NCBI GenBank assembly: GCA_947623775.1
Contig: CANQHL010000003.1
Coordinates: forward strand, 1-43,065
Source: an uncultured Clostridia bacterium
Lineage (GTDB): Bacteria; Bacillota; Clostridia; Christensenellales; UBA1242
Reading direction: 5' to 3'
DNA length: 43,065 bases
How positions within the stretch are numbered: the first letter of the stretch is position 1; every line of letters begins with the position of its first letter. The translations under genes and the position numbers were made by a program. The notes under the pieces were generated by a model that was not told the DNA's origin, searched no databases, and saw only the letters and a list, made by a program, of their open reading frames with translations. Shown here one piece after another: positions 2,809 through 26,901 of this stretch.

Positions 2809-3035
2809 ACCAAATATAGATGTATATAAAAAATGCTAAGGTATACAAATTAAATTAAGCTGATATAAACAAACTAAGGCGTTTGTGCGAATTTAGACAA
2901 GTATATGTAATGGTGCTAGGCATTTATGCAAACTAAAATAAAGTGCAAAATCAAATAGTTAAGATAATAAAGCCTGATTGTCGTGACCTTACATACGTAA
3001 AATGAAACACCCAAACTCTCATGTTCGAGTTTATA
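2789..3035 (-). ncRNA. candidate small RNA with repeated hairpins
   Basis: No ORF of 60 aa or more, own terminator, possible TTGCAT-N18-TATAAA promoter, several short hairpins. Confidence 0.35.
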
Positions 3036-3103: not shown

Positions 3104-3132
3104 AAAAAAATGGCCTTTTTAGGTCATTTTTT
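3104..3132. terminator. bidirectional terminator closing the paralog array
   Basis: AAAAAATGGCCT-TTTT-AGGTCATTTTTT overlapping the stop codon of the last array gene. Confidence 0.65.
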
Positions 3133-3708
3133 ATGTACAATCTCCTCATCATAATCTTCAACTCTTTTTATTCGTCGTTTTGATATTTTTTCTGCTTCAT
3201 CTAAGTCCAAAACAATTGGTTCTGGTTCTTTTGTTTTTAGTTTAGATGTTCGCCAATCTATGGTTGCCTTTCCAAGCAACTCTCTGCTTTTGTTTGGATA
3301 AAAGAACCAACAAACACCATTTGAAGCAATCATTGATGTTAACAACACGAGAGAGGACACAACATATTTTTGTTTTGTGTCTTTTAAAGACTTTATTTCA
3401 TCATCGAGCGATGTATCCAATTCAATTATGGACTTTGTAAAATCATCTGATGAAAGATAATCCTTTTTATCTTTATATTCTTCTTCACTTATCAAGCCCA
3501 TATTGTATGATTCATCAAGGCTTTTCATTTCTCTGCTTTGTGCCAAGGCAAAATCCGCATCTGTTTCTCTGTAAAGCTTATATATCCTTGCCCGTTCGCC
3601 GGCATAAGTGCTTGAAACACCAGCAAGCCCGCCAACACTAGCCCCAAACAGCAAGGCAGGCGCCATAGCACTCACAATTTTAATAATTGCTTTAAACTTA
3701 TTATTCAT
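3124..3708 (-). CDS. array paralog 10: two-TM protein, SHOCT-like loop, tail DYDEEIVHKK
   Basis: Start moved to MNNKFK (GGGG SD). Gly-rich TM1, GLISEEEYKDKKDYL, TM2, charged tail. Confidence 0.85.
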   Translation of the reverse strand: MNNKFKAIIKIVSAMAPALLFGASVGGLAGVSSTYAGERARIYKLYRETDADFALAQSREMKSLDESYNMGLISEEEYKDKKDYLSSDDFTKSIIELDTSLDDEIKSLKDTKQKYVVSSLVLLTSMIASNGVCWFFYPNKSRELLGKATIDWRTSKLKTKEPEPIVLDLDEAEKISKRRIKRVEDYDEEIVHKK

Positions 3709-3744
3709 ATTTATCCCCATACACATTTTATTGTTTGAAATCGA

Positions 3745-4296
3745 CTAATCTTGTACAATTTCTTCAGAATATAACTTTTCCTCTTGTTTACGCATTTTTT
3801 CTTCTTTACGTTTTTGTTTTTGCTGTCTTTCCTGATAATTTTCTCTCATATTTTCCCTTACACAGAAAAATTCTCTAAAACCTGTAGCATATGAAAACAG
3901 TGACATAAGACCTACACTGAACGGGATAAGGCTGTATAATTCACCCTTTGAACTCGCATCTCTTTTGGCAATATGAGTTTTCACTTCTTCATCTCGGATA
4001 ACATTTGATTTTAATGCTGATTGTATAAATTCTTTTGAATTTAAATGATCAGTTAAGTTTTCAAATTCCTCTTCACTTATCTCGCCATTATCAAATGCCT
4101 GCTTCGCTAACTGTAATTTACCCTCTTTTTCTGCTATAAAATCCTCAGTTTGTGCATATAAATCAACCGCCATGTCATTTTCTGAACTTTCCTTGACAGA
4201 CATACCTATAATAGTTCCAAGCCCGCCAAGTGCTGTCGCTGCAGGCAACAGTGCCAAGCCGAGTTTTAAAATAGCCGTTATTTTTTTTGAAATCAT
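3745..4296 (-). CDS. array paralog 9: two-TM protein, SHOCT-like loop, tail LYSEEIVQD
   Basis: TM1, FDNGEISEEEFENL, TM2, K/E/Q-rich tail. Confidence 0.88.
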   Translation of the reverse strand: MISKKITAILKLGLALLPAATALGGLGTIIGMSVKESSENDMAVDLYAQTEDFIAEKEGKLQLAKQAFDNGEISEEEFENLTDHLNSKEFIQSALKSNVIRDEEVKTHIAKRDASSKGELYSLIPFSVGLMSLFSYATGFREFFCVRENMRENYQERQQKQKRKEEKMRKQEEKLYSEEIVQD

Positions 4297-4300
4297 ATTT

Positions 4301-4864
4301 TCACTCCACTATCTCTTCGCTGTATAATTTTTCTTTTTTTGCACTTCTTTTGCGTTGTTTTTCTTCTTCTTTTCTTTTTCTTTCATTTTCATCTTTGAAA
4401 CTTTCTTGCATATTCTCCTTGACTTTCAACAGTTCAACAAACCGATCACTATTATATAGAATAAATGAGGATAGCAGTCCGCAGCCAAGTGGGATAAGAG
4501 GATATAAAATAGATGAATTAAGGTTGTTTACATTTTCGGTTAAACGATTTACATCCTCATTGTCGGTAAACGATGTTTTCATTACAGACGATGCAAATTC
4601 CGTGGAATTTAAATAATCTTTTCTTCTTTCATATTCGTCCTCATCTATTTCACCATTTGTAAACTTTTCTTCAAGTTCATCAAGTTTTATTTCTTGATAC
4701 ATTTTGAAATCTTCAGTTGTCGAAAATATCTTTACAGCTTTGCTCTCCTGAGTCAATGAGGATATGCCCATTCCGGCAAATGCCCCAACGCCAGCAAGCC
4801 CAACAATTGCAGGGGCAAGCCCTAATCCAAGTTTTAATATTGCTGTAATTTTCCTTTTTATCAT
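4301..4864 (-). CDS. array paralog 8: two-TM protein, SHOCT-like loop, tail LYSEEIVE
   Basis: TM1, FTNGEIDEDEYERRKDYL, TM2; visibly closest to paralog 9. Confidence 0.88.
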   Translation of the reverse strand: MIKRKITAILKLGLGLAPAIVGLAGVGAFAGMGISSLTQESKAVKIFSTTEDFKMYQEIKLDELEEKFTNGEIDEDEYERRKDYLNSTEFASSVMKTSFTDNEDVNRLTENVNNLNSSILYPLIPLGCGLLSSFILYNSDRFVELLKVKENMQESFKDENERKRKEEEKQRKRSAKKEKLYSEEIVE

Positions 4865-4912
4865 ATTTTTTATCCTTTTTTCTTAAAAAATGGCTATTTT
4901 TAACGTTTTATT

Positions 4913-5425
4913 TTATAATTTTCGTTTCTCTTCTTTTGCCTCTTTTGCTGCAATGAAATCTGTTTCAGCCGACCAAATTGTATTTCTAACAAAGTTTGTG
5001 CAAGAATAGACCATTGAAATGGCTGTTGCGGCAACTATAGGAAAGGCAACTCCGCAAATAATACCCGCCAATTCTGTTTGAGAATTTTCATCTATTTTGT
5101 CTATGTATTGCTGATATTCTTCGTTGTTTGCCTTTAAAATTGTGTCTATAAATTCGGTTGAATTATAATAACTCTTTTTTTCCAGATATTCATTGTTTGA
5201 AATCAATTTATTATCAACATCAGATTTTAACATTTCTAAATCAGAATTTATATATTCTTGTACTTCGGGCAATTGTCGTATCTCTTCATAAGTGTTATTT
5301 AAATCATCCGCCCCCTTACATCCAAGCCATATGAAAGAAGCTTCGACGCCAGCTGAAATCGCAAATGGCAAGCCGAGACTTATAAGTTTTAACCCCCCTA
5401 CAAATTTTTTCAAACTTCCTTTCAT
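4913..5425 (-). CDS. array paralog 7: two-TM protein lacking the YxEEI tail
   Basis: FIWLGC, DNKLISNNEYLEKK, AGIICG; ends early at EEKRKL. Confidence 0.85.
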   Translation of the reverse strand: MKGSLKKFVGGLKLISLGLPFAISAGVEASFIWLGCKGADDLNNTYEEIRQLPEVQEYINSDLEMLKSDVDNKLISNNEYLEKKSYYNSTEFIDTILKANNEEYQQYIDKIDENSQTELAGIICGVAFPIVAATAISMVYSCTNFVRNTIWSAETDFIAAKEAKEEKRKL

Positions 5426-5458
5426 TATTCCCCCAAATTTTTGAAAAATTGATTTTTT

Positions 5459-6007
5459 CTATCTTAAAATTTCTTCCTCGTAATTTTGTTCTTCTTTTTT
5501 CTTCTTTTTCATCTGTTTCTCTTCGCGTGCATCATCAAAATCTTCTTTTGCCGACTCCACTAAATTTTCTGCAAAATAAGTGCAAAAGTAGAGAATTCCA
5601 GAAGCGCCCGCACCAATTAAAGGATAAATTATACTGCAAGCAATCCCCGCATTCATTTCAGCGTCACCTTTATCTATTGCTTTAATATACTCACTATATT
5701 TTTCTGGCTCACTTTTCATCAACGAATAAAGAAATTCGTGCTGATCATATTCTTTTGATTGGTCCAAGTATTCTTTCTTTGTTATTTCTTTATTATCAAG
5801 ACGATTTTGTAAAATATCCAAATCCTCTTCAATCTGTTGGCTTATCTCGGTGTTTTGTCGTGCGTCTTTATAAGTGTTTTTTAATAATGTGTCCCCATCG
5901 CAGGCAAGCCAAATAAACGCTGCAGATCCACCAATTGTTAGTGCAACCGGAAGTGCAGTTGCCGCCATTTTTAATCCACCTTGAATATATTTCAATAAAC
6001 CTTTCAT
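5459..6007 (-). CDS. array paralog 6 (182 aa), tail NYEEEILR
   Basis: MKGLLKYIQGG subfamily; GGGGG SD. Confidence 0.9.
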   Translation of the reverse strand: MKGLLKYIQGGLKMAATALPVALTIGGSAAFIWLACDGDTLLKNTYKDARQNTEISQQIEEDLDILQNRLDNKEITKKEYLDQSKEYDQHEFLYSLMKSEPEKYSEYIKAIDKGDAEMNAGIACSIIYPLIGAGASGILYFCTYFAENLVESAKEDFDDAREEKQMKKKKKEEQNYEEEILR

Positions 6008-6040
6008 ATTTCCCCCAAATTACTGAAAAATTGAATTTTT

Positions 6041-6589
6041 CTATCTTATAATCTCTTCAGCATAATCTTTTTCTTCTTTTTTATTCTTTGTCAACATTTT
6101 ATCTAGGTGTGCATCTCTAAAATCTTCTTTTGCCGACTCCACTAAATTTTCTGCATAGTAAGTGCATAAGTAAAGGGCACTGGAAATTAGCCCGCCTATT
6201 ATAGGAGTTATTATACCGCAAATAATCCCTGCATTCTTTTCAGCGTTGCCTTCATCTATTGCTTTAATATACTCACCATATTTTTCTGGTTCACTTTTCA
6301 TCAAAGTATAAAGAAAATCGCGCTGATTATATTCTTCTGTTTGTTCCAAATATTCTTTCTTTGTTATTTCTTTATTATCAAGGCGGTTTTGTAAAATATC
6401 CAAATCCTCTTCAATCTGTTGACTAATCTCAGGGTTTTGTTGGACGTCCCTATAAGTGTCTTTTAATAATTTGTCCCCATTACAGCCAAGCCAAATAAAC
6501 GCTGCTGTTCCGCCAAGTGTTATTGCAACCGGCAATGCAACCGTTGCCATTTTTAAGCCACCTTGAATATATTTCAATAAACCTTTCAT
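6041..6589 (-). CDS. array paralog 5 (182 aa), tail DYAEEIIR
   Basis: MKGLLKYIQGG subfamily; 582-bp spacing from its neighbours. Confidence 0.9.
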   Translation of the reverse strand: MKGLLKYIQGGLKMATVALPVAITLGGTAAFIWLGCNGDKLLKDTYRDVQQNPEISQQIEEDLDILQNRLDNKEITKKEYLEQTEEYNQRDFLYTLMKSEPEKYGEYIKAIDEGNAEKNAGIICGIITPIIGGLISSALYLCTYYAENLVESAKEDFRDAHLDKMLTKNKKEEKDYAEEIIR

Positions 6590-6622
6590 ATTTCCCCCAA
6601 ATTATTGAATAATTTGATTTTT

Positions 6623-7171
6623 CTATCTTATAATCTCTTCGGCATAATCTTTTTCTTCTTTCTTCTTCCTTTTTGCCTCTTTCATTTCTTGTGCCGCATC
6701 AAAATCATCGCGAGCCGAGTCCGCTAATGCTTCAGCAAAATCAGTGCACAAATAAAGATATGCGGAAGTAAGTCCCCCGATTAAAGGAAAGATTATACCA
6801 CAAGCAATCCCCGCCATTAGTTCACTTTCGCCTTTATTTATGCTTTTAACATACTCCCCATATTTCTCTGGTTTGCTATTCATGAATTCATAAAGAAAAT
6901 CATCTTCTCTATATTCTTCGGTTCTTTCCAAATATTCCTGTGTGGTTATTTCCTTATTATCAAGGCGGGTTTGCAAAAGATCCAAATCATCTGAAATCAT
7001 TTGACTGATTTCAGTATCTTGTCTTGCCTCACTAAAAGCATTGCTTTTCATGGCATCACCGTTACAGCCAAGCCAAATAAACGTTGCCTCACCACCAAGC
7101 GTTATTGCAACGGGCAATGCGATTGTTATCATTTTTAAGCCACCTTGTATATATTTCAATAAACCTTTCAT
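6623..7171 (-). CDS. array paralog 4 (182 aa), tail DYAEEIIR
   Basis: MKGLLKYIQGG subfamily; GGAGG SD. Confidence 0.9.
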   Translation of the reverse strand: MKGLLKYIQGGLKMITIALPVAITLGGEATFIWLGCNGDAMKSNAFSEARQDTEISQMISDDLDLLQTRLDNKEITTQEYLERTEEYREDDFLYEFMNSKPEKYGEYVKSINKGESELMAGIACGIIFPLIGGLTSAYLYLCTDFAEALADSARDDFDAAQEMKEAKRKKKEEKDYAEEIIR

Positions 7172-7201
7172 ATTTCCTCCATATTGAATATGTGATTTTT
7201 T

Positions 7202-7750
7202 CTATCTTATAATTTCCTCGGCATAATCTTTTTCTTCTTTTTTAATCTTTTTCAACTTTTTCGCTTCTCGCGCCTCTTCAAAATCATCTCGAGCCGAGTC
7301 CATTAAAGATTCAGCCATATCTGTGAAAAGGTAAATTGCTGCAGAAGTAAATCCTCCCGCTATCGGAAATATTATACCGCAGGCAACCCCCGCAATAAAC
7401 TCAGATTCGCCTTTATCTATTCTTTTAACATAGTCTCCATATTTTTCCGGATGGCTTTTCATGTACCCATAAAGAAAATCATCTTTTTTATATTCTTCGG
7501 TTCTTTCCATAAATTCTTGTGTTGTTATTTCTTTATTATCTAATCGGTTTTGCAAAAGATCCAAATCTTCTGAAATCATTTGACTGATTTCAGGATTTTG
7601 TCTTGCCTCATTAAAAGCGTTGTCATACATATTGCTTCCGTTACAGCCAAGCCAAATAAACGCTGCTGTTCCGCCAAGTGTTATTGCAACCGGCAATGCA
7701 ACCGTTGCCATTTTTAAGCCACCTTGAATATATTTCAATAAACCTTTCAT
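7202..7750 (-). CDS. array paralog 3 (182 aa), tail DYAEEIIR
   Basis: MKGLLKYIQGG subfamily. Confidence 0.9.
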   Translation of the reverse strand: MKGLLKYIQGGLKMATVALPVAITLGGTAAFIWLGCNGSNMYDNAFNEARQNPEISQMISEDLDLLQNRLDNKEITTQEFMERTEEYKKDDFLYGYMKSHPEKYGDYVKRIDKGESEFIAGVACGIIFPIAGGFTSAAIYLFTDMAESLMDSARDDFEEAREAKKLKKIKKEEKDYAEEIIR

Positions 7751-7788
7751 ATTTCCCCCAAACTTAACTCTGTTTTAAAATTTTTTGT

Positions 7789-8352
7789 TTAGATTACTAT
7801 TTCCTCGGAATATTCATCTTCCTTTTTTGACTTTTTTATTTTGCTTTGCTCTTCACTATGCAATTTGGCATCTTCAAAAGAATCCCTTGCTATGTCGCAT
7901 AATATTCCCGCAAAAGTATCACCGTTAGATGGAGCATACATAAAGAAACTTGCAATAACTGAAAGCGTAAATGGAAGAATAGCCCATTCAGAACCATTTT
8001 CCATTTTTCTCGCTTTGTCTAGGTCGCCCTGAAATTCATCTTTTAGAATTGCATTTTCTTCCAACATATTATCCAAGAATTCATGCGAGGAATAATAAGC
8101 AGTGTTTTCATCATATTCTCGTCTTGTAATTTCTCCATCTTCAAAAAGTTGTGCATTACGTAAAATTTGCTCTTCAACTTCATCTTGCACAATCTCGCTT
8201 TGTTCAATTGCGTTATACGTTTTTTCTTTTAAATCGGAACCTGCCAAGCCTACTCCAATTCCACCGCCAAGACTACCAAAAAAAACTAATCCCGGCAAAA
8301 CCGTGCTTGCAATCAAAAGTGCACCTTTTATTCTCTTCAATAATCCGCTCAT
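7789..8352 (-). CDS. array paralog 2: two-TM protein, tail EYSEEIVI
   Basis: Gly-rich TM1, FEDGEITRREY, TM2, ARDSFEDA; GGAGGAG SD. Confidence 0.88.
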   Translation of the reverse strand: MSGLLKRIKGALLIASTVLPGLVFFGSLGGGIGVGLAGSDLKEKTYNAIEQSEIVQDEVEEQILRNAQLFEDGEITRREYDENTAYYSSHEFLDNMLEENAILKDEFQGDLDKARKMENGSEWAILPFTLSVIASFFMYAPSNGDTFAGILCDIARDSFEDAKLHSEEQSKIKKSKKEDEYSEEIVI

Positions 8353-8397
8353 AACTCCTCCCGTAATCCAAGCAATATATGTTATATTTATACATAT

Positions 8398-8425
8398 ATT
8401 ATATACTATTTTTGTAAAAAGTCAA
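8398..8425 (-). promoter_or_regulatory. sigmaA-like promoter for paralogs 2-10
   Basis: TTGACT-N16-TATAAT. Confidence 0.55.
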
Positions 8426-8451
8426 TAGCAAGAGGAAAAATATATTTACAC

Positions 8452-8484
8452 AAAAACCCCTGAAAGCATTAAACTTTCAGGGGT
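8452..8484 (-). terminator. terminator after array paralog 1
   Basis: ACCCCTGAAAG-N7-CTTTCAGGGGT with a T run on the minus strand. Confidence 0.8.
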
Positions 8485-8507
8485 CGCATCATAGATTTTA
8501 AACCAAA

Positions 8508-9044
8508 TTATCTCACAATTTCTTCATTATAATCATCGTCGCGTTTATATTTATCAAAATATTCTTCCCTTTGCTTGCGTAAACGTTTGAGCGTTCTTGT
8601 AGTGTTGACTACATTCATAATTGTAATGCCGACATTTGCAGCATTTATACCAATAACGCCTACAAGACGCATTATAGAAAAATCCTCATTGCGTTGAAGC
8701 ATAACTTGGAATTTCTCATTTCCAACATTTTCTTTTTCAATCGACGATTTTATAAAAGACCATTCATCTAAATCGTCCATTTGCTCATTTGCTTCGCTTG
8801 GAGTGATTTCATTATTATCAAGTTTTTCTTGAATTTCTTGAATTTTTTCTTCTTTAAATTGCTGATAAACTTCAGTTTCTTGATATTGGTTTATAATATC
8901 GTCTTTTATATTTCCAGCCTGCACCATTCCACCAACCCAGAGACCAAAAGATGCCAAAGCCAATGTTCCAAGCCCTGAAATTGTAGCAACGAGTGCAAGA
9001 TTTCTTCGTAAACTATCTTTAACCACACCATTATTTTTTGCCAT
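8508..9044 (-). CDS. array paralog 1 (most divergent, own transcription unit), tail DYNEEIVR
   Basis: TM1, LDNNEITPSEA, TM2, charged tail. Confidence 0.85.
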   Translation of the reverse strand: MAKNNGVVKDSLRRNLALVATISGLGTLALASFGLWVGGMVQAGNIKDDIINQYQETEVYQQFKEEKIQEIQEKLDNNEITPSEANEQMDDLDEWSFIKSSIEKENVGNEKFQVMLQRNEDFSIMRLVGVIGINAANVGITIMNVVNTTRTLKRLRKQREEYFDKYKRDDDYNEEIVR

Positions 9045-9061: not shown

Positions 9062-9127
9062 ATTATATAGCATTTTCAAAAAAAGTCAATATTTACTTTG
9101 CAAAAAATTAACAATTAAGATTATAAT
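9062..9127. promoter_or_regulatory. back-to-back sigmaA-like promoters
   Basis: Minus: TTGACT(9084-9089)-N16-TATAAT(9062-9067). Plus: TTGCAA(9098-9103)-N18-TATAAT(9122-9127). Confidence 0.55.
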
Positions 9128-9362: not shown

Positions 9363-9542
9363 TTATTTTTGCTCATCTTTTTTATTAGATTTTTTTGCTT
9401 TTTTCTCAATTTTTTCAACTTCTTGCTTCACTGCCTTTTCGCCTTTATCAACTGCTTGTTTGGCACATTCTGAATATTTGTAAAGAAGTGCACCTGTCAC
9501 AAGCCCCATACTGAAGCCAAGCAACATTAATACATCTTTCAT
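9363..9542 (-). CDS. small membrane-anchored protein (YtxH-like architecture)
   Basis: Start moved to MKDVLMLLG (GGAGG SD); hydrophobic G-x3-G-x3-G N-terminus, K/E-rich helix. Confidence 0.7.
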   Translation of the reverse strand: MKDVLMLLGFSMGLVTGALLYKYSECAKQAVDKGEKAVKQEVEKIEKKAKKSNKKDEQK

Positions 9543-9725
9543 AACTTCCTCCTCGATTATAGTTTGTGCCATATTTAATAATTTATACAGTAATGAATAA
9601 AAACATAAATCATCTTAAATTTGTGTAAAAACTCTTAAAATTGCAAAAAAACAGGCTTTTTTATTAAATTTTAAGTGATTTTCATTAAATTATCACAAAT
9701 TTTGCTTGTTAGACGCTGAAAATCC

Positions 9726-24132: not shown

Positions 24133-24630
24133 ATGAAAGAAATTTATATCAATGGCAAAAAAATTAAGCCGGTTACTTTTAATATGAATATAGATAATAA
24201 AATTTTTACAATCACCGATTGCGGGCATGAAATCATTATAAACAACGAATCCTATTATAGAGGAAGCAGATCAAGTTCATATCATAATGGTGATAACATT
24301 GAAATAAAAGATTTTAAAGTTTTTATCAATCGCTATCCCGTACCGCTAGGAGATGGTATATTTAATCTTGTTGGCAACGGATATGAAAATCATATAAAAA
24401 TTGACGGCAAGGAGTTCACCGTCAAAGATTGCGGAAGAGAATATAAGGTTAATGATAAAATTATATTCAAAGACATTCCATGCAGCATTTGCGGATGGTT
24501 TGGATGTATAGAATGTGTTGACGGCATTCTGGTAATCAATGATGAACCTATATCATTTAATGGTCGAATTAGTGACTATTCTACTGATGACGACGATGAA
24601 TATTCTGAAGAAATTTGCCAAGACGAATAG
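24133..24630 (+). CDS. hypothetical beta-rich protein with internal duplication and EYSEEIC tail
   Basis: Strong promoter and SD; FTITDCGHEIIIN / FTVKDCGREYKVN repeat; no TM segment or signal peptide. Confidence 0.85.
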   Translation: MKEIYINGKKIKPVTFNMNIDNKIFTITDCGHEIIINNESYYRGSRSSSYHNGDNIEIKDFKVFINRYPVPLGDGIFNLVGNGYENHIKIDGKEFTVKDCGREYKVNDKIIFKDIPCSICGWFGCIECVDGILVINDEPISFNGRISDYSTDDDDEYSEEICQDE

Positions 24631-24645: not shown

Positions 24646-26901
24646 ATGAAAAAATTTATAAACTATTTTATGGCTATCGCAATTTTCATGTGTTGTGGCA
24701 TTATTCTTTTTGCTTGCAATAAAAAAGAATACAGCATAACTGTGCAGGAATGCGAACATGGTGAAATTTTTGTTGACAATTCCGCTCGTGCGGGTGAAGA
24801 AGTATATTTTGATGCTCAACCTGAAACAGGTTACACATTGACAAAAATTACATACAATAATAGAGTTATTGAGGGTGACCACTTTACAATGCCAGAAAAA
24901 GATGTCGTTTTGCGTGCAACTTTTACAAAATCATTTGAAATTACAATCAACAACACTCAAAATGGAACTGTAACTGTTGGCAATCAAACTTATACAGGTG
25001 GTGACAAAATTTATCTGTCAATTTCACCTGCAAGTGGATATAAACTAAAACATTTAGATGCAAATGTTTCAATAAACATGGAATTTAACATTGGCGAAGA
25101 ACTGAAATACTATTTTATAATGCCTAATTTTGACGTGCAAATCACCCCCGTTTTTGAAAGAATTTATACAATATCGGTCGCACCCGATATTGCACACGGC
25201 TATATCAGTGTGCTTAATGAGGCATTTGCCGGTGATCAAGTGGAAATCATGGTTATTCCCGACGAAAACTACGCAATAAAAACCTTATCCATAAACGGAA
25301 CAAATTACTTCCCTGCAAACAACACTTTCTCTTTCACTATGCCAAACACAAACGTTTTGATTTCCGCCGAATTTGAAACGGCTCAAACAGATACTTTTTA
25401 TAATGTAAACGTTATACAAGCAAATAATGGCACAATTGCCGTCAATAAAACAACCGCAAAATTCGGAGATACAATTGTTGTCACCTTAACTCCAAGTAAT
25501 GGATTTAAAGTTAAGCATATCTTAATAAATAACACCCCGACCGTTATAGAAAACAATGTTTTCTCCTTCCTAATGCCTAACTTTGAAATCACAATTTCCG
25601 CAGTCTTTGAAAATGCAATCATTTCAGATAGTTTCAATGCCATTTCTATGGTCCATGTTGACGACAACTCATCATACGATGAAATTTACTATAAAAACAA
25701 CTTCATAAACATTGAAGAAAATAAATTTAAATGCGGATATTATGATGGAGAAAAATATTGTGTACATACGCTTAATTATCAAATTTTAAACAACCAAATT
25801 ATTTTACAAACAACAGCCCCTTTCCTAAGCGAACTTACAATAACCATTGAAAGCGGAAGATTGATTGTTGGCAATGATGATGTTTCATTAACCTATGAAC
25901 GTGTTGAAGATTTCGACATGCCTCACGGCGTTTATACATCACCTGAAACAATTTCCGATCAAACTATTCAATTTGAATATGTTTTCCAAAGCAATGGCAA
26001 TATAATCTCGATTGCAGATGTCCAAAACCATGTTTCCGGAGATGAAATTGGTAAAGCAAATATTTACGGCAACATAATGATTATTGAAAATGTAAATTAT
26101 GATATTTCAAACTACGAAGTCTATGTTGGAAAACTTTCCAAACTTCAACAATCTTATATCTGGGATTTTTACAACTTCTATTACACCGATGATTATTATC
26201 AATATTTCCATGATCCAAAAACATTCACCTACAAAAATGATTTTGATGAAACAACCTACACTTACAACAATGAAACACTCAGCGGTTATTTGCCAGAAAA
26301 AGACAAATTTATAAGAATCACAGGCAATCTTGTAACTTTTGGAGCATATATTTATGAAACACTTGAGGATTATGGCACATATGAGGGATTTCTATATCTT
26401 GAATATCTTCCAGCCACAATAGACGGAAACAATATTTCTGTACAAGTTCCAATTCCATTTAGCGAGCAAAGTTGCATAGTCACCATTAATGCCACACTCA
26501 GCCAGGACAAGCAAACGCTCACAGTGAATTTTATGGATGAAGAGATAATTTTCACACTTACTGAAAATATAGAATTTTCCAGTGGAACATATCAGCGAAC
26601 CGAAGTTTTGAGCGGCTCTGCAACCAATCTTATAACTGATGTTATTGACGAAGATGGAAATGTTACTGAAAGAGTTACTTATCAAGATGTTACAACAGAT
26701 AGCGAATATATTGGAAGATTTAAAGTGTTTGGCAACATTTGTGTTTTGCTCGGTGTTGATGAATCATTTGGCATATTCGTTGGCAAAGGACAAATTTCAA
26801 GTAATGTGGCAACATGGAGTGGAATTAATTTTTATGTTGAACGCTCAACTCAAGAATTTACAACAGACGAATTTCATTTTAATTACAATAAAATTGCATA
26901 A
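24646..26901 (+). CDS. surface lipoprotein with four InlB-B/Flg_new-like beta repeats
   Basis: Signal peptide with LFAC lipobox; four ~75-aa repeats (G.i.v...a..G..V....P..GY.l....F.MP..dV.i.a.F); acidic beta-rich C-terminal half. Confidence 0.82.
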   Translation: MKKFINYFMAIAIFMCCGIILFACNKKEYSITVQECEHGEIFVDNSARAGEEVYFDAQPETGYTLTKITYNNRVIEGDHFTMPEKDVVLRATFTKSFEITINNTQNGTVTVGNQTYTGGDKIYLSISPASGYKLKHLDANVSINMEFNIGEELKYYFIMPNFDVQITPVFERIYTISVAPDIAHGYISVLNEAFAGDQVEIMVIPDENYAIKTLSINGTNYFPANNTFSFTMPNTNVLISAEFETAQTDTFYNVNVIQANNGTIAVNKTTAKFGDTIVVTLTPSNGFKVKHILINNTPTVIENNVFSFLMPNFEITISAVFENAIISDSFNAISMVHVDDNSSYDEIYYKNNFINIEENKFKCGYYDGEKYCVHTLNYQILNNQIILQTTAPFLSELTITIESGRLIVGNDDVSLTYERVEDFDMPHGVYTSPETISDQTIQFEYVFQSNGNIISIADVQNHVSGDEIGKANIYGNIMIIENVNYDISNYEVYVGKLSKLQQSYIWDFYNFYYTDDYYQYFHDPKTFTYKNDFDETTYTYNNETLSGYLPEKDKFIRITGNLVTFGAYIYETLEDYGTYEGFLYLEYLPATIDGNNISVQVPIPFSEQSCIVTINATLSQDKQTLTVNFMDEEIIFTLTENIEFSSGTYQRTEVLSGSATNLITDVIDEDGNVTERVTYQDVTTDSEYIGRFKVFGNICVLLGVDESFGIFVGKGQISSNVATWSGINFYVERSTQEFTTDEFHFNYNKIA

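Follow-up and report, generated by a model that had tools for sequence, protein, structure and literature searches.

A tandem array of putative two-pass membrane proteins with a lineage-specific C-terminal tag in tiny-genome gut Clostridia, and a candidate for its reader

The stretch of DNA analysed here, which we refer to as the window, comprises 43,065 nucleotides (positions 1 to 43,065 of contig CANQHL010000003.1) from the genome assembly GCA_947623775.1 of an uncultured Clostridia bacterium. Between positions 3124 and 9044 the ORF list of the window contains ten co-oriented open reading frames (ORFs) on the minus strand, of 170-200 amino acids (aa) each, which encode paralogous proteins with two hydrophobic segments. 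Most of them end in a short common peptide, and it is this C-terminal tag, its replacement between related lineages and its presence on unrelated soluble proteins that form the subject of this report. The ten genes are given below; PF09851 is the Pfam SHOCT family.

8508..9044, minus strand: gene 1, 178 aa, tail ending in DDYNEEIVR; match to the profile of the ten copies at E 2.6e-55, hydrophobic segments at residues 16-34 and 122-140
7789..8352, minus strand: gene 2, 187 aa, tail ending in DEYSEEIVI; first gene of a likely nine-gene operon
7202..7750, minus strand: gene 3, 182 aa, tail KDYAEEIIR; among the four recent copies, with 76% identity to gene 4
6623..7171, minus strand: gene 4, 182 aa, tail KDYAEEIIR; in a four-copy clade specific to this genome (support 99)
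6041..6589, minus strand: gene 5, 182 aa, tail KDYAEEIIR; copy used for the AlphaFold2 model
5459..6007, minus strand: gene 6, 182 aa, tail QNYEEEILR; 74-77% identity to gene 5
4913..5425, minus strand: gene 7, 170 aa; the sole copy of the ten that lacks the tag, ending in ...KEEKRKL
4301..4864, minus strand: gene 8, 187 aa, tail KLYSEEIVE; PF09851 at E 1.6e-4, 21.7 bits, below the cut-off
3745..4296, minus strand: gene 9, 183 aa, tail KLYSEEIVQD; PF09851 at E 4.5e-5, 23.5 bits, below the cut-off
3124..3726, minus strand: gene 10, 200 aa as the longest ORF, tail EDYDEEIVHKK

The ten proteins could be aligned over their full length, with 18-23% identity to the first gene and about 65-77% mutual identity among the four central copies (genes 3-6). 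When all ORFs of the genome were searched with a profile built from the ten copies, each of these was matched at an E value between 1e-55 and 1e-77. Two hydrophobic segments were observed by a Kyte-Doolittle scan in nine array proteins and in 23 of the 24 members found genome-wide, the second segment of 3745-4296 being weaker and below the threshold used; in a larger set of 143 family members, 128 had exactly two. The N-termini contain 2-5 Lys/Arg and 0-1 Asp/Glu, the first hydrophobic segment is rich in Gly and Ala, the loop that follows (70-101 aa, typically about 88) has a net charge of -5 to -15, and the tail after the second segment is rich in Lys and Glu. Alignment, profile and hydropathy therefore agree with the preliminary description of the locus, which had recognised ten co-oriented paralogues with a basic N-terminus, two hydrophobic helices, an acidic loop and a charged tail.

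An AlphaFold2 model of gene 5 (6041-6589), computed with 24 paralogues as the alignment, was entirely helical with a mean pLDDT of 86.9 (helices at residues 2-50, 53-71, 77-86, 90-99, 101-143 and 145-181). In the model the N-terminus and the first membrane segment form a single helix, the loop consists of three short helices, and one further helix runs into the second membrane segment and is followed by the tail helix. Among family members the flank N-terminal to the first segment has a net charge of +3.0, and the other flanks are close to 0. Since the N-terminal flank is strongly positive, the N-terminus is predicted to be cytoplasmic, and two crossings would place the tail in the cytoplasm as well, with the loop outside. 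In genes 3-7 a ...W-L-(G/A)-C sequence closes the first hydrophobic segment (e.g. 6482-6493 in 6041-6589) and resembles a non-canonical lipobox. We considered a lipoprotein reading of the five or six copies with ...WLGC and rejected it, as the -3 position does not hold a canonical lipobox residue and the Cys is absent in most members.

The window's own genome (G000 in our numbering) is represented by an assembly of 126 contigs, 1.31 Mb in length and 78% complete. On iterated searching with the profile it yielded 24 family members in four arrays, ten in the window, six on contig C7 and four each on contigs C2 and C55, the C55 members being shorter than the rest and having a different tail. Of 1.84 billion cluster representatives searched with a profile, 599 matched at E<=1e-3 and 141 of these at E<=1e-10; almost all were 150-230 residues long. 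Within the genus, 68 of 120 other genomes (0.7-1.5 Mb) had matches at E<=1e-5, from 1 to 24 in each, and copy counts of at least 13 were confined to genomes of 1.2-1.4 Mb. In the rest of the order, where at most 11 candidates per genome were scored, matches were seen in three of 289 genomes of other genera and were all weak and partial.

No family in Pfam, NCBIfam, PADLOC or PHROGs matched above its cut-off, and no chain in the PDB gave a meaningful sequence match. For the gene 5 model, Foldseek returned nothing better than E 0.25; in an exhaustive structural scan no match exceeded Z 7.4, a level that helical hairpins reach as background, and the ESM Atlas gave no usable match. Fused forms were not found among longer proteins, which is weak evidence, and a search of proteins of similar length returned only six, mostly the window's own. 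A comparison with the Holin/SLATT group gave a SLATT_5 match in one of the 143 members (E 4e-4), and the loop of 70-101 residues is not the short one expected between the helices of that group. The only name attached to a family member, in one of ten clusters looked up, was 'hypothetical protein [Clostridia bacterium]', and no account of this membrane family was found in the literature under SHOCT. By these searches the family is uncharacterised and occurs almost exclusively in a single genus of gut Clostridia with tiny genomes, in keeping with the earlier suggestion that it was lineage-specific and undescribed.

Nine of the ten array proteins end in Y-x-E-E-I-(V/I/L)-x(1-3), the exception being 4913-5425. 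In gene 5 the tag lies as follows.

6050..6064, minus strand: C-terminal tag Y-A-E-E-I of gene 5, residues 176-180; same position in nine of the ten genes

Across G000, 16 of the 24 family members have Y.EE[IVL] near the end, as against 2 of the 3327 other ORFs. The codons of the tag vary synonymously among the 16 tagged copies (TAT/TAC, GAA/GAG, ATT/ATA), and hence it is the peptide rather than the DNA that selection has kept. In an alignment of 48 sequences of the G000/G087/G097 clade (three genomes of the genus), the tag (entropy 1.70 bits) and the 13 N-terminal residues (1.82 bits) were the most conserved parts, and the loop and helix 2 the least (2.7-2.8 bits). The conserved N-terminus reads MK..LK...GGLK. 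Neither terminal feature had been part of the preliminary description, and we regard the tag as the most informative feature of the family.

Elsewhere in the window, a 165-aa soluble ORF without a Pfam match (24133-24630, plus strand) ends in DDDDEYSEEICQDE and is the sole non-family ORF of G000 with a family-like Y.EEI tail; we estimate that about one such match is expected by chance among 3351 ORFs. The product of the next gene (24646-26901, plus strand) has 751 aa and contains four InlB B-repeat (Flg_new_2) domains.

Most paralogues of a genome have the tail motif in common. From one lineage to another it is replaced as a unit, often with the locus unchanged, as seen in the following motifs.

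G000, G087 and G097: EY.EE(I/V)
G127 and G061: (E/D)LP(S/D)I...YY.(D/N)
G129: E.(I/L)ESLDE(D/N)Y(L/Y)
G045: EKLGSLDDFL

The body of the protein remains recognisable across this exchange, and two-pass proteins of G127 and G061 from which the last 14 residues had been removed still matched the G000 family at E values down to 1e-15. At the DNA level, a pattern for the G127/G061 tag gave 18 and 10 matches vs 0 for a reversed-pattern control, and the pattern for the G045 tag was found in only two of 121 genomes of the genus.

The tag is not restricted to membrane proteins. On contig C64 of G127 and contig C15 of G061 (loci L065 and L066), each array includes roughly a dozen soluble ORFs of 126-199 aa which bear a EDEEELPSIDDEYYRD-type tag, as do the two-pass proteins adjoining them. 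The consensus end of these soluble ORFs is EDEEELP(S/E/A)(I/L)D(D/E).YY(R/K/N)(D/S). With the tag removed they have no relative in G000 save for one marginal match, and none of ten examined from G127 had a Pfam match. G000 itself has 22 ORFs of 77-506 residues that end in [YF][LIV]D[LIV]E, and on its contig C2 soluble ORFs, some with a terminal YLDLE, are interspersed among the four family members; judged by title, none of the papers listed for 'YLDLE' was relevant. The membrane family is the only tagged family that we could trace across the tag clades.

Tails of other kinds were also observed. At C55:1445-3506 of G000 (L024) the four members measure 158-165 aa, and three of them end in (I/E)(N/E)LV(N/D)(D/N)..E..I, a shared ending that may be a further tag variant in the same genome. 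G044, a genome with about a dozen short copies, has only a loose acidic tail. Taken with the species of low copy number, whose members have no common tail motif (23 ORFs at 14 loci), this indicates that sharp tags accompany some but not all expansions of the family.

The site between the gene for a CBS-domain protein and NifU-NifS also bears an array in G127, G061, G087, G129 and G045. Positional orthologues of the window genes in G097 and G087 share 32-45% identity (e.g. 41% between gene 2 and G087_C86_1445 and 45% between gene 10 and G097_C29_1154) and the flanking proteins 90-93%, so that the orthologues have diverged about six times faster than their neighbours. A quick maximum-likelihood tree resolved array-level orthogroups with support of 94-100, such as that of gene 1 with G087_C86_2193 and G097_C29_5652 (support 99), as well as species-specific duplications, the four central window copies forming a clade private to G000. 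From these comparisons of sequence, the family is seen to evolve by gene birth and death, and very fast. The first 90 nucleotides (nt) of genes 3 and 5 (7661-7750 and 6500-6589, minus strand) are 100% identical, and the remainder 57-88%; the tract looks like the footprint of gene conversion over the N-terminus and the first membrane helix. Pairwise dN/dS among the four close copies was 0.28-0.45 overall, with no region above 1 and the tail reaching 0.95 in one pair. This indicates fast evolution under relaxed constraint; so crude a test does not demonstrate positive selection. The earlier description of the family as diversifying therefore stands as regards its speed and its turnover of genes, but not as a claim of positive selection. 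A look at strain variation at the locus, with two contig runs and two read runs, returned short pieces of low depth containing three joints, whose sides of 21-25 letters are too short to be relied on.

The loop had been likened to SHOCT, and this resemblance is real but weak in the window. In gene 5 the core of the module lies as follows.

6320..6403, minus strand: SHOCT-like helix-turn-helix core of gene 5, residues 63-90; PF09851 aligns with residues 63-82 at E 0.49

Four of the ten window proteins matched PF09851 at E<=1, the best at 23.5 bits, and none reached the cut-off of 27 bits; gene 2 (7789-8352) also matched SHOCT_2 (PF20612) at E 0.016. Across the family, 22 of the 143 members matched PF09851 at E<=0.01, the best at 2e-9, and in the 48 sequences of the clade the pattern N..IS..EY.....YL.S..F is conserved in the core. 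The module is probably a diverged homologue of PF09851. Two other weak Pfam matches were taken as chance, one to PqqD over the first membrane helix (2 of 143 members) and one to GvpG over the same charged helix as SHOCT (13 of 143). We know of no established function for SHOCT. Oligomerisation, which the preliminary description had taken as settled, was proposed in the paper that defined the domain, yet that paper's own experiment gave no support (PMC3581485). The same genome encodes a canonical SHOCT protein (contig C43:3166-3684, L033), which has a multi-pass N-terminal part and PF09851 at its very C-terminus, at 30.1 bits and above the cut-off.

The gaps between genes 2 to 10 are 4-48 nt, and 155 nt follow gene 1. 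The putative regulatory sites of the array are as follows.

9062..9089, minus strand: promoter-like site before gene 1, TTGACT-16-TATAAT, 11 of 12 positions, a consensus match only
8455..8485, minus strand: intrinsic-terminator-like hairpin after gene 1, 13 pairs followed by a T run
8398..8425, minus strand: promoter-like site before gene 2, TTGACT-16-TATAAT, 11 of 12 positions
3009..3030, minus strand: weak hairpin resembling a terminator, downstream of gene 10; 8 pairs, of which 3 are G-C

The two strong promoter-like sites and the strong terminator-like hairpin suggest that gene 1 is a transcription unit of its own and that genes 2-10 form one operon. A purine-rich ribosome-binding site precedes 8 or 9 of the 10 genes; for gene 2 it is GGAGG, 6-9 nt upstream of the ATG. 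The true start of gene 10 is probably the seventh codon, at 3708, giving 194 aa, because the database form has that length and no ribosome-binding site precedes 3726. The base composition of the array is like that of its surroundings. One flank carries isoleucyl-tRNA synthetase, the CBS-domain protein and signal recognition particle (SRP) RNA, the last being a bacterial large SRP RNA (164 bits) at 2483-2748 on the plus strand, between the array and the CBS-domain protein gene. The other carries NifU, NifS and thioredoxin. Between the array and NifU lies a 69-aa ORF (9363-9572, minus strand) with one hydrophobic segment and a K/E-rich tail, which matched neither the family profile nor any library searched.

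Since the tail motif is under selection, private to lineages and also borne by soluble proteins, a docking or address tag is the best interpretation of it. We propose, tentatively and at somewhat less than even confidence, that the two-pass proteins are membrane carriers of a portable, lineage-specific C-terminal tag which is read by a shared cytoplasmic partner. Each paralogue would be a helical hairpin, with a short basic N-terminus in the cytoplasm, helix 1 across the membrane, an acidic loop of about 88 residues with its SHOCT-like helix-turn-helix outside, and helix 2 crossing back into a charged tail of about 45 residues that ends in the cytoplasm with the short linear motif. The tag would dock the protein to a cytoplasmic partner common to all paralogues, and in some lineages the same partner would dock unrelated soluble proteins that bear the same tag. 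The loop and the second helix, which change fast, would then be the variable working end, and the reader would co-evolve with the tag.

Coupling proteins of the VirD4/TraG type read C-terminal signals in other systems, and in the Dot/Icm system of Legionella a Glu-rich C-terminal signal (the E-block) is reportedly read by the type IV coupling complex. For this reason we name a membrane-anchored type IV coupling ATPase of this type, a core gene of the genus, as the likeliest reader. Either it would extract tagged proteins for export, in the way that Legionella handles its transmembrane effectors, or it would keep them at the machine. In that organism, according to one study, transmembrane effectors insert into the inner membrane with the C-terminal signal necessarily facing the cytoplasm, and soluble and membrane-embedded effectors alike depend on that signal (PMC11602083). 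Two marks of type IV substrates are seen here, namely a short C-terminal signal shared by unrelated proteins and a genomic VirD4/TraG coupling protein.

The candidate is a 684-aa protein at C1:39115-41169 of G000 (L069:5595-7649), with matches to T4SS-DNA_transf (PF02534, 118.6 bits), TraG-D_C and TrwB_AAD_bind, two N-terminal membrane helices and a Walker A motif. Its gene stands alone among housekeeping and sporulation genes (DegV, SipL, SpoIIR, SleB, YpeB and PriA). It was found in 119 of the 120 other genomes of the genus and in all 82 high-quality genomes, G000 included; full-length orthologues were present in all seven sampled genomes of the taxonomic family, and other families of the order gave only partial matches of 30-36% identity in 26 of 193 genomes. 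On this distribution the coupling protein is a core gene of a reduced-genome lineage and not a gene of mobile elements. One other ATPase turned up, of about 900 aa (C15:18903-20909, L070:6904-8910, cut by the contig end), which has weak matches to TraG-P-loop, AAA_10 and DUF87, adjoins genes for PRC-barrel and HflX proteins and was found in 60 of 60 genomes of the genus at 56-83% identity.

Three other proteins were considered as readers and rejected. The C2 array ends with a 657-aa AAA_5 protein, which has no counterpart at that end of the orthologous array of G087, within the stretch examined. A 533-aa protein that heads the G127 array has neither a Pfam match nor a homologue in five other genomes. 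The third, a 956-aa protein with an FtsK/SpoIIIE domain, is present in only three of 121 genomes (G000, G097 and G087, at 29% identity in the last), and no second FtsK domain above the cut-off was found in G127, G061, G129 or G044. This last protein (C31:3699-6569 of G000, L053) has a single divergent FtsK/SpoIIIE domain and 83% identity in G097, and its gene adjoins those for a BspA-type LRR protein and two zinc-ribbon TPR/Sel1 proteins.

Several observations weigh against a tag that is read by the coupling ATPase. The window motif is trailed by 1-3 variable residues and so is not a carboxy-terminal signal at a fixed distance like YLDLE; gene 7 and the four C55 copies do not carry EY.EEI at all; and as the low-copy members share no tail motif, the tag is not essential to the basic function of the family. 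The predicted topology was drawn only from hydropathy and charge counts, and an outside loop conflicts with a comparative study in which SHOCT-like modules are predicted to be intracellular membrane anchors (PMC11237479). Export, too, would have to accommodate a loop of about 88 residues, given that short periplasmic loops are reported to favour it in Legionella (PMC11602083). As to the reader, the coupling protein lies at least 20 kb from any array and does not track the family, since it is also present in the 52 of 120 genomes that have no family match. Of type IV machinery beyond it, the single additional ATPase was all that turned up, with no search aimed at channel parts, and that enzyme may be VirB4-like or a housekeeping enzyme of the HerA type.

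Among the alternatives, the first is that the arrays encode immunity proteins, each paralogue neutralising a different membrane-acting toxin of the cell or its kin. Tandem arrangement, fast evolution and gene birth and death would all be expected of such proteins. On C2, moreover, the four members each come after a fast-evolving soluble ORF, in the manner of toxin-immunity pairs, and the window array, which has no such partners, would suit a string of 'orphan immunity' genes. A recognisable toxin gene directly upstream is, however, seen at neither place, since there was no Pfam match in 11 soluble ORFs of the C2 locus, nor in the ten tagged soluble ORFs of G127; nor was WXG100, the mark of type VII secretion, found in the 78%-complete genome. 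The parts that are conserved are the two predicted cytoplasmic ends and not the surface that would face a toxin. In G127 and G061, furthermore, the supposed toxins and immunity proteins would bear the same C-terminal tag, and we know of no need for it in immunity proteins. We consider this explanation improbable.

About equally improbable, in our judgement, is that these are ordinary envelope helpers of the SHOCT type duplicated by chance, the motif being a structural helix end that is shared through 3'-end recombination within arrays. SHOCT-like modules have been linked to membrane-associated complexes and to the phage-shock network in the comparative study (PMC11237479). The likely gene conversion over the first 90 nt of genes 3 and 5 implies that such exchange does occur in the array, and dN/dS below 1 suits plain constraint. 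The synonymous differences between tag codons, seen also in the strings matched by the DNA pattern for the G127/G061 tag, speak against recent homogenisation of the DNA, however, and the tag has been swapped as a block between lineages while the body remained homologous. A divergence some six-fold that of the flanking genes would also be unusual for housekeeping proteins.

A similarly low probability attaches to the boldest extension of the tag-reader proposal, in which the genus would run an undescribed protein-addressing system whose chromosomal, universally retained coupling ATPase reads tags that change from one close lineage to the next and exports or deploys soluble and two-pass proteins alike, the latter being delivered as membrane-inserting effectors with an outer loop engaged in an arms race with other cells.

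Less probable again is a role as membrane sensors or adaptors, in which a variable outside bundle senses cues and the tail peptide tethers one cytoplasmic enzyme. The layout is that of a minimal chemoreceptor (an N-terminus inside, a helix, a helical ectodomain, a second helix and a cytoplasmic linker with a short shared peptide), and a pentapeptide tether is documented for chemoreceptors (PMC7390727). But neither the ten proteins nor the 143 members contain a signalling domain, the same tag on soluble proteins fits poorly with a tether, and for a genome of 1.3 Mb, from which so much else has been lost, 10 to 24 sensors would be a large share. The weakest alternative, that of variable surface antigens or phage-receptor decoys, would agree with the variability of the predicted outside loop and second helix and with copy numbers of 0 to 24 among species, but is highly improbable, since a helical loop of 88 residues would sit beneath the wall that the encoded penicillin-binding proteins imply, and not at the surface, neither signs of phase variation nor invertible or slippery elements were seen in what looks like a nine-gene operon, and the conserved cytoplasmic tag would be left unexplained.

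None of these rivals explains a tag shared by membrane and soluble proteins as well as the tag-reader proposal does. About 1% of a 1.3-Mb genome, which has shed much else, is given over to 24 copies of one membrane protein. In this family a single protein body can be traced from lineage to lineage through exchanges of its tag, as would be expected if tag and reader co-evolve, and the presence of the coupling ATPase in every genus genome except one helps to narrow the choice of reader. If the proposal is true, it would amount to a new way for wall-bearing bacteria to address soluble and membrane proteins, and would supply a set of natural, orthogonal peptide tags.

Among known systems, the strings of type VII immunity genes in Firmicutes (of the esaG, tipC and tsaI types) are long co-oriented arrays of diverged, fast-evolving small paralogues, some of them membrane proteins, and the present arrays share these features. 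They differ in that no toxin, LXG or WXG100 gene was found among the C2 ORFs or in the 78%-complete genome, and in the cytoplasmic tag, which immunity would leave unexplained. Known SHOCT proteins share with the loop a two-helix module of about 28 residues with the signature G-(E/D)-I-(S/T)..EY. According to the defining paper (Eberhardt et al. 2013, PMC3581485), 89% of known members have the domain no more than 50 residues from the C-terminus, whereas in this family it is internal, between the membrane helices, at residues ~63-90 of 182 and about 95-120 from the end. In chemoreceptors the C-terminal pentapeptide NWETF recruits CheR and CheB, and these receptors are, like the family, two-pass proteins with a helical ectodomain and a short shared peptide that ends a flexible cytoplasmic tail. 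Unlike them, the family has no signalling, HAMP, methylation or MCP domain (Pfam, ten proteins and 143 members), and its tag occurs on soluble proteins too.

The transmembrane effectors of the Legionella Dot/Icm system likewise combine a short acidic C-terminal signal, on soluble and membrane proteins, with a coupling ATPase in the genome. That system belongs to a Gram-negative pathogen with a full, clustered secretion apparatus. Here, by comparison, the coupling protein stands alone and a single further ATPase turned up (no search was aimed at channel parts), the loop is long, and the tags are sharply defined and swapped between close lineages. Within the same genome, the YLDLE-tagged soluble arrays likewise place a short acidic and aromatic C-terminal tag on unrelated proteins, and the membrane family differs from them in that its tag is EY.EEI and does not stand at the very end.

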